From the IMG/VR virus record IMGVR_UViG_2690316316_000011, positions 1-30,935 of that record: a DNA stretch of 30,935 nucleotides; one strand, 5' to 3'. A program made the position numbers and the translations under genes. Of this stretch, positions 23,223 through 23,395 are shown in pieces. The first letter of the stretch is position 1, and the number at the start of each line of letters is the position of its first letter. Origin of the DNA: a virus (taxonomy: Duplodnaviria > Heunggongvirae > Uroviricota > Caudoviricetes). The notes under the pieces are model-generated. The model had not been told where the DNA came from, did no database searches, and saw only the letters and a list, made by a program, of their open reading frames with translations.

Positions 23223-23227
23223 AAAAA

Positions 23228-23257
23228 AGTCCTCCTGACTTATTTATCAGGAGGACT
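23228..23257 (-). promoter_or_regulatory. hairpin sequestering the terS Shine-Dalgarno; terminator-like on the minus strand
   Basis: Perfect 11-bp inverted repeat AGTCCTCCTGA-(8 nt)-TCAGGAGGACT; on the minus transcript the 3' arm contains AGGAGG and is followed by UUUUU then the terS AUG. Confidence 0.5.
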
Positions 23258-23395
23258 ATGTTTTGTGTACATCTAAAATGTCACAAACGATTCAAAGCAT
23301 CCGGTGCCGAAAACTCGCATTGACAATCAGGCTGACGGAGTACCTTAATTATTAGCTTCACTTAATTAACTTGATTAAAATCACTTACTTTTCAT

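Follow-up and report, generated by a model that had tools for sequence, protein, structure and literature searches.

A terminator-like hairpin containing the Shine-Dalgarno sequence of the small terminase gene, a probable double lock on the late genes of an uncharacterised prophage family

In the 30,935-nt stretch of viral DNA analysed here (the window), the gene for a Nu1-type small terminase (terS) is directly preceded by an RNA hairpin that has the anatomy of an intrinsic terminator and whose 3' arm holds the terS Shine-Dalgarno (SD) sequence. The hairpin is best read as belonging to known kinds, a terminator and an SD-sequestering lock, in a prophage family that is uncharacterised. We think it probable that it acts as a double lock, terminator plus ribosome-binding-site mask, at the junction between the cargo genes and cos on one side and the ~23-kb packaging, morphogenesis and lysis operon on the other. 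The features of this junction are as follows.

22641–23222, minus strand: terS, Nu1-type small terminase of 193 aa
23222–23220, minus strand: ATG start codon of terS
23223–23227, minus strand: T5 tract, making six consecutive U with the last stem base and directly followed by the terS ATG
23228–23239, minus strand: 3' arm of the hairpin, GTCAGGAGGACT, holding the terS SD AGGAGG
23240–23245, minus strand: loop AAATAA, which the two flanking stem bases complete to ATAAATA
23241–23247, minus strand: ATAAATA motif in loop and 5' arm, a candidate -10-type element or A/U-rich translation enhancer
23246–23257, minus strand: 5' arm of the hairpin, AGTCCTCCTGAT, the anti-SD sequence, without counterpart in the leaders of Rahnella (L101) and L102
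23255–23284, minus strand: weak sigma-70-like match GTGACA-18-CATAGT, its -10 overlapping the first bases of the 5' arm, from which a start would fall near the loop
23262–23287, minus strand: upstream hairpin H2, TTTGTGACATtttAGATGTACACAAA, within the conserved cos–terS block, its structure only partly conserved
23302–23344, no strand assigned: probable cos core, GGTACTCC, a variable stretch of 17–22 nt and (C)GCGAGTTTTCGGCACCG
23466–24587, plus strand: DUF3800 cargo gene, divergent from terS

Read on the minus strand, the hairpin region is cat AGTCCTCCTGA taaataag TCAGGAGGACT ttttt ATG. The sequence confirmed the perfect 11-bp inverted repeat that the initial annotation had placed 5 nt before the terS start, and RNA folding added a twelfth, U·G pair, giving a 12-pair stem with a 6-nt loop (AGTCCTCCTGAT-AAATAA-GTCAGGAGGACT, 23257..23228, minus strand). 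The folding energy was -20.4 kcal/mol for the hairpin alone and -28.8 kcal/mol for a 106-nt region (z = -5.06), a value that none of 200 shuffles equalled. The AGGAGG (23236..23231) lies entirely within the 3' arm, with the ATG 8 nt further on; its bases had computed unpaired probabilities of at most 5e-4, and the AUG itself is free. The stem falls within the range of intrinsic terminators (5–14 bp with a loop of 3–8 nt), with G-C at 6 of the 12 pairs, and the U-tract lies directly 3' of it and is retained in all three alleles described below. A terminator consensus scan of both strands between 20 and 31 kb ranked the hairpin as the top site. The fold, the U-tract and the compensatory conservation thus bore out the earlier description of a textbook terminator with the SD as its 3' arm.

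The assignment of the gene itself was clear, the terS ORF matching the small terminase family phrog_57 (E = 1.9e-18). Its start was identical in the PGAP annotation of E. coli G3/10, and the ATG column was invariant among the aligned relatives. The terL ORF as listed (20819–22726) overlaps terS by 86 nt; gene callers place the terL start of relatives past the terS stop, giving proteins of 545–596 aa, so the true terL start is probably internal.

When the whole window was shuffled 200 times at the dinucleotide level, 23 of the shuffles contained a perfect inverted repeat with arms of at least 11 nt and a loop of 3–12 nt (on average 0.135 per window), so that the repeat alone is just moderately unlikely. 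Because the hairpin combines its position at a conserved start codon with a T-run and with conservation, the probability that it arose by chance is negligible.

The hairpin was present in 17 fetched related loci from E. coli, Klebsiella and Enterobacter, where it formed three alleles and always stood directly before terS proteins that start with M[PS]K[TI]RTNK and share 76–100% amino acid identity. The AGGAGG was unchanged across the three alleles. In an alignment of eight sequences, all 96 of 96 stem cells were paired, two pairs having changed on both sides (G-C to A-U and U-A to G·U) and three on one side via wobble, and pairing fell to 36–58% when the partner was slid by 1–3 columns. RNAalifold predicted the same helix independently and found no competing one. 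The observed paired percentage, the two both-sides counts and the covariation score were reached by 12 of 500 shuffles, and the number of further pair types by 63 of 500; the covariation rests on few events, since there are just three hairpin alleles.

Conservation was specific to one strand. Nine wobble cells become A·C mismatches on the opposite strand, and the variant hairpins were much weaker in antisense than in sense (-12.7 against -17.2 kcal/mol in L097, -10.2 against -15.6 kcal/mol in L008), so the object under selection is the terS-sense RNA and not a DNA palindrome or a plus-strand RNA.

Leaders of other relatives pointed to the origin of the structure. In the homologous leaders of L102 and of Rahnella L101, ...acaaaacata..., a purine-rich SD region and the ATG are retained, but the T-run is missing, as is the 5' arm of ~10 nt, and the SD is weaker. 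All remaining relatives had A/T-rich, unstructured leaders without the hairpin. The T-run occurred only in leaders that have the stem, and the SD was raised to AGGAGG only in the hairpin clade. From these comparisons the hairpin is a derived feature of one clade, in which the stem, the strengthened SD and the U-tract were gained together. Such a joint gain would be the expected outcome of selection for a terminator and sequestrator.

The terS protein was 100% identical to E. coli proteins, with close relatives in Klebsiella and Enterobacter. A 401-nt terS-leader query was mostly covered, at 93.5% identity, in one of 5,426 complete E. coli genomes, and seven further genomes of this set had weaker, partial terS matches. 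Among 50,697 phage records there was neither a nucleotide match nor a terS match, and the nearest terL, from phage DCP80, was 35% identical. Rfam gave only sub-threshold matches for the leader (28.6 and 24.7 bits, where the gathering score is 60). A riboswitch or leader-peptide attenuator was rejected on the basis of these sub-threshold scores, the unconserved start of an upstream ORF (see below) and the RNAalifold result without a competing helix.

The hairpin lies in a block that begins ~124 nt before the terS ATG and is common to relatives with differing upstream cassettes; other relatives carry a divergent gene inserted between the cos motif and terS. Within the block, the right half of the 23302–23344 element resembles CGCGGGTTTTCGC, which directly follows the cohesive end of lambda cosN, and the centre between the conserved flanks GGTACTCC and CGCGAGTTTTCGGCACCG varied even among close relatives. 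By its sequence, this element is a probable cos site. Just past the cos motif, positions 23289–23302 and their equivalents in L005, L006 and L097 form small hairpins or palindromes whose sequences are wholly different (GAATG/CATTC, CGATTG/CAATTG and CCGT/ACGG), which suggests selection for pairing or for dyad symmetry.

A rival reading, prompted by the R2/R1 repeat of lambda, takes the inverted repeat to work as DNA, namely as a cosB-type palindrome bound by the small terminase or by a bending protein of the host, with the RNA hairpin as a by-product. In its favour, the repeat has the lambda-like cos motif on one side and the start of terS on the other, the equivalent position upstream of Nu1 is occupied in lambda by a 17-bp inverted repeat (R2/R1), and the terS family is Nu1-like, with PF07471 precomputed for several relatives. 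However, where a cosB would have at least three related sites between cosN and terS, only the two arms were present; no third arm copy was found in the region, the best candidate matching at 9 of 11 positions in a non-conserved stretch. The Rahnella terS has a near-identical N-terminal DNA-binding segment, yet its leader is without the palindrome, the allele changes preserve RNA pairing via G·U while breaking DNA symmetry, and the T-run co-occurs with the stem. We regard this reading as highly improbable.

A further reading would make the hairpin an ordinary terminator at a recombination junction, or a 5' or 3' RNA-stability hairpin, in which the overlap with the SD is incidental and of no regulatory significance. 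Cargo cassettes upstream are indeed swapped among close relatives, and the count of 23 shuffled windows in 200 means that a perfect 11-bp repeat is not vanishingly rare. Against this, the homology breakpoints were 60–125 nt upstream of the hairpin, ahead of cos, so the hairpin is part of the conserved cos–terS block and not of a cassette. The hairpin region was identical among lineages with differing flanking bases, pairing was kept in all alleles with both-sided changes included, and no clade but that with the hairpin has its SD strengthened to AGGAGG, all of which make an incidental overlap improbable.

The swapped cassettes upstream of cos and terS are located at 23466–28120 in the window, at 5670–6557 in L059, at 2938–3727 in L008, and in L099, L100, L103 and L104. 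They contain DUF3800 in the window and small membrane or lipoprotein genes or PLDc_2 elsewhere, mostly divergent to terS. Other genes, also divergent, take the DUF3800 position in L059, L008, L096 and L097, so the hairpin is not the terminator of the DUF3800 gene. A 12-bp inverted repeat at 24593–24635 (ATATCCTCATGC / GCATGAGGATAT) lies between the convergent lipoprotein and DUF3800 genes, with a clear U-tract on neither strand.

The whole element is ~34 kb long (L107 6701–20501 plus window 1–23222), of which cargo makes up ~7 kb. Its left end, seen in L106 and L107, has a 646-aa serine recombinase adjoining host genes of the yeaG/yeaH type; the integration site in strain G3/10 is ybhA. The recombinase is followed by small genes of 125, 59 and 50 aa, an HNH-like gene, a 153-aa gene, the cargo and then terS. 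The cargo includes genes for STM2901/DUF8209, DUF1493, Hcp, 8xMP/RipA-like, EAL-like, lipoprotein and divergent DUF3800 products; the Hcp is of the type VI secretion system (T6SS), and it is carried together with the DUF1493 and STM2901-family genes. After the cargo come packaging, head, tail and lysis genes in this order, with a GpA-type large terminase and a lambda-family portal downstream of terS. Beyond the tail genes, the distal end carries the lysozyme and 3TM holin genes, at 1337–3448 of the window, as well as a SegE-like GIY-YIG gene, and no lysis cassette was found upstream of terS. Pfam and PHROGs searches across the element recognised no replication, repressor or antiterminator gene.

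Two other terminator-like hairpins are on the same strand, one at 30748..30728 before the HNH-like gene and one at 26806..26790 after Hcp, and such module-boundary hairpins would fit a modular, insulated layout. The first of these (30728–30748, minus strand) is made of two AGTACT copies (AGTACTTCAgggTGAAGTACT followed by TATTTT), and the HNH-like gene starts 20 nt beyond it. The palindromic hexamer AGTACT had 89 copies in the window against ~10 expected, and CAGTACTG had 17 against 0.4 expected. The AGTACT copies had an even density of ~3 per kb, occurred in each of the three reading frames as well as outside ORFs, extended to the recombinase and cargo genes, and were absent from 6.6 kb of flanking host DNA (L107 1–6650 compared with 6700–20501); no other palindromic hexamer exceeded 1.5-fold. 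Where two ORFs converge (1..456, plus; 482..1276, minus), a second perfect 11-bp inverted repeat, at 442–467 (AAAAAAGCCCCttacGGGGCTTTTTT), forms a classic bidirectional terminator. A 17-pair hairpin at 16908–16948 (minus strand) lies just 3' of the fused protease-capsid gene (17030..18826), within the ORF at 16694..17017, and may serve there as an attenuator or stabiliser.

In the proposed double lock, polymerase arriving from upstream, from early or lysogen-expressed cargo genes, would meet the GC-rich 12-bp stem and the U-tract and undergo intrinsic termination 5 nt ahead of the terS AUG. In RNA that escaped termination, the AGGAGG would be buried in a -20 kcal/mol helix and terS would go untranslated. 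A ribosome alone would not be expected to open a helix of -20 kcal/mol, in line with what is established for structured ribosome-binding sites. The benefit would be that a lysogen makes no cos-cutting terminase and no lysis proteins although expressed cargo adjoins cos; since terminase cuts cos, a lysogen with leaky expression of terS and terL would suffer chromosome breakage at the prophage. The genomic context supports the lock in that the co-oriented upstream genes are the serine recombinase, the small genes, the HNH-like gene, Hcp and others. It speaks against the lock that the gene immediately upstream of terS is divergent in most loci, so that any read-through must originate further away and cross the divergent gene in antisense.

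Because terminator and SD mask would form a double lock, productive terS expression would need a dedicated unlocking step. The initial annotation had reasoned that there are two ways to a terS mRNA, reading through the hairpin or starting within it, and this logic holds. Transcription might start inside the hairpin, at the loop ATAAATA or the weak sigma-70-like site, and yield an mRNA without the anti-SD arm; or processive antitermination from an upstream promoter might be combined with a separate unmasking of the SD. On our analysis, the terS transcript would most likely begin within the hairpin, in the manner of T4 gene e and I-TevI, with antitermination as the alternative.

ATAAATA was the commonest 7-mer in the 60 nt upstream of terS among 24 lineage representatives, being present in 12 (1.6 expected from the shuffle mean, with a maximum of 6 in 1000 shuffles). 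It was also the commonest 7-mer upstream of the minus-strand gene starts of the window (6 of 30, P ~2e-4 for a word chosen post hoc). These minus-strand sites, at 3761–3767, 9521–9527, 13021–13027, 13548–13558, 16328–16334 and 23241–23247, are within 60 nt upstream of six late gene starts, which include those of the major tail protein gene and terS, and the coding strand carries 11 of the window's 12 ATAAATA copies. The motif might function like a late promoter or as an A/U-rich translation enhancer. In L046 and L050 it lies only 12–13 nt from the ATG and abuts the SD, a spacing that fits a translation enhancer better than a promoter.

The sigma-70-like GTGACA-18-CATAGT was a chance-level match whose -10 is without the final T in L008; a sigma-70 promoter scan of the region found 35 sites against 38.5 expected, i.e. 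at or below chance, and GATAAATA is a poor sigma-70 -10 element. Modelled transcripts starting at the loop or at the SD had weak folds (-2 to -7 kcal/mol). The earlier suggestion that the mRNA begins inside the structure gained some indirect support from the ATAAATA enrichment and from the hairpins in T4-like contigs described next.

In a scan of viral contigs, a near-identical 30-nt hairpin, AGCCTCCTGATAAATAAGTCAGGAGGCT followed by a T-run and ATG, turned up in L118 and L131, two T4-like contigs with genes for a UvsX-like recombinase and a gp41-type helicase. Further hairpins of the same design in viral contigs had different complementary extensions. These same-design hairpins precede genes that, read by eye, we take to be HNH-type endonucleases and a lysozyme. 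The raw count for the loose design pattern was near chance (at least 80 matches); extra complementarity of at least three further pairs was seen in 5 cases among the matches listed, against 1.0 expected.

A late promoter of T4 consists of an 8-bp TATA box, TATAAATA, and has no -35 element (PMC2988020). The ribosome-binding sites of genes e, soc, 49 and I-TevI are sequestered in read-in transcripts, and late promoters inside these hairpins yield translatable mRNA (PMC3014915). By analogy, ATAAATA in the terS loop might be a -35-less late promoter at a T4-style stop-and-restart junction, with terS made only from late transcripts that start at the SD; we put this forward tentatively and hold it to be rather unlikely. 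Profile searches of the ORFs recognised no gp55- or gp33-like factor in the element. If this reading were true, an integrating, siphovirus-like prophage family of Enterobacteriaceae would have a T4-like late-promoter grammar without recognisable gp55 or gp33. The element would then encode a new promoter-recognition factor or borrow one in trans, e.g. from a superinfecting T4-like phage. A start inside the hairpin, if true, would extend the T4 regulatory design to temperate elements.

The alternative, that late transcription from a promoter upstream of cos crosses the hairpin by antitermination of the lambda Q/tR' kind, with terS translation either low or unmasked by another factor, we consider doubtful. 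It would accord with the canonical terminator anatomy, with the shared orientation of terS, the cargo and the early genes, starting at the recombinase end, and with the presence of at least two other same-strand terminator-like hairpins, which is consistent with a read-through cascade. In the cargo-free relatives L102 and L002, terS and the genes ahead of cos point the same way, and in lambda the late mRNA passes a -38 kcal/mol hairpin and U-run ending ~23 nt before the Nu1 ATG. However, antitermination alone leaves the SD within the -20 kcal/mol helix, and there would be several kb of mixed-orientation cargo to cross.

The analogy with lambda Q and tR' drawn in the initial annotation was unsupported, the lysis genes being distal and the upstream region consisting of the probable cos and variable cargo. 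A lambda-type Q unit has the Q gene by the late promoter and the terminator ahead of the lysis cassette, and neither arrangement was found. The search for a Q-like antiterminator proposed at the same time gave no Q- or N-family match when the ORFs scanned between the recombinase and terS were compared with Pfam and PHROGs; it took in the small proteins of 50–237 aa in that region that have no family assignment, and the absence of a recognised Q/N-type gene counts against antitermination. A search for a late regulator among the proteins of 125, 59, 50, 153, 166 and 237 aa with Pfam, PHROGs and PDB sequences gave nothing usable. The homologues of the 153-aa protein were all close and unnamed, and its AlphaFold model had a pLDDT of 46. 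Genes upstream of cos in L102, L002 and L098 had no Pfam matches.

Translation of a short upstream ORF (uORF) was a candidate for unmasking the SD. The 10-codon uORF (ATG TAC ACA AAA CAT AGT CCT CCT GAT AAA TAA) spans the 5' arm, which its translation would be able to melt, and stops in the loop. It was rejected: its start reads ATT, AAG or AGG in L008, L096 and L098, it is without an SD, and its lack of conservation also counts against antitermination. A plus-strand 21-aa mini-ORF that the palindromic SD creates was likewise rejected, as it has only 9 codons in L008.

If the double lock operates as proposed, a lock at the terS start would permit lysogen-expressed cargo, such as the T6SS Hcp, the EAL-like protein, lipoproteins and the DUF3800 or PLD genes, to reside directly upstream of cos without the risk of chromosome breakage. 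The hairpin offers a simple entry into late-gene switching in this prophage family, and for annotation it carries the lesson that a perfect AGGAGG need not mean high expression.

The closest parallel is found in T4 genes e, soc, 49 and I-TevI, where the SD is likewise sequestered in read-in transcripts (PMC3014915). In these T4 genes, an TATAAATA-type element lies within the hairpin region, and transcripts started there are without the 5' strand. Unlike T4, the element described here is an integrating, siphovirus-like prophage with no recognisable gp55 or gp33, and its motif is GATAAATA. Because a full U-tract is present, the terS hairpin should also terminate as well as mask, unlike its T4 counterparts. 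It resembles the intrinsic terminators of E. coli and its phages in its GC-rich 12-bp stem, 6-nt loop and U-tract, and in being strand-specific and compensated. Ordinary intrinsic terminators differ in that they do not end 5 nt before a start codon with the SD of that gene as their 3' arm, and in most loci the terS hairpin has no co-oriented gene directly upstream.

As with lambda Q at pR'/tR', a terminator is situated between upstream transcription and the structural genes; unlike that system, the element yielded no Q-like gene and has its lysis genes distal, and its terminator, which contains the SD, stands behind cos at the start of terS. With R2/R1 of lambda cosB, the hairpin shares an inverted repeat between a cosN-like motif and terS, together with an RNA hairpin and U-run. 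It differs in having two arms only, in being missing from relatives with the same DNA-binding segment, and in preserving RNA pairing instead of symmetry. In the fold-back inhibition of IS10 and related insertion sequences, external transcripts hide the ribosome-binding site and the element's own promoter inside the hairpin escapes this inhibition. The terS hairpin would share this logic in an element of a different kind, with an internal promoter that is so far a candidate.
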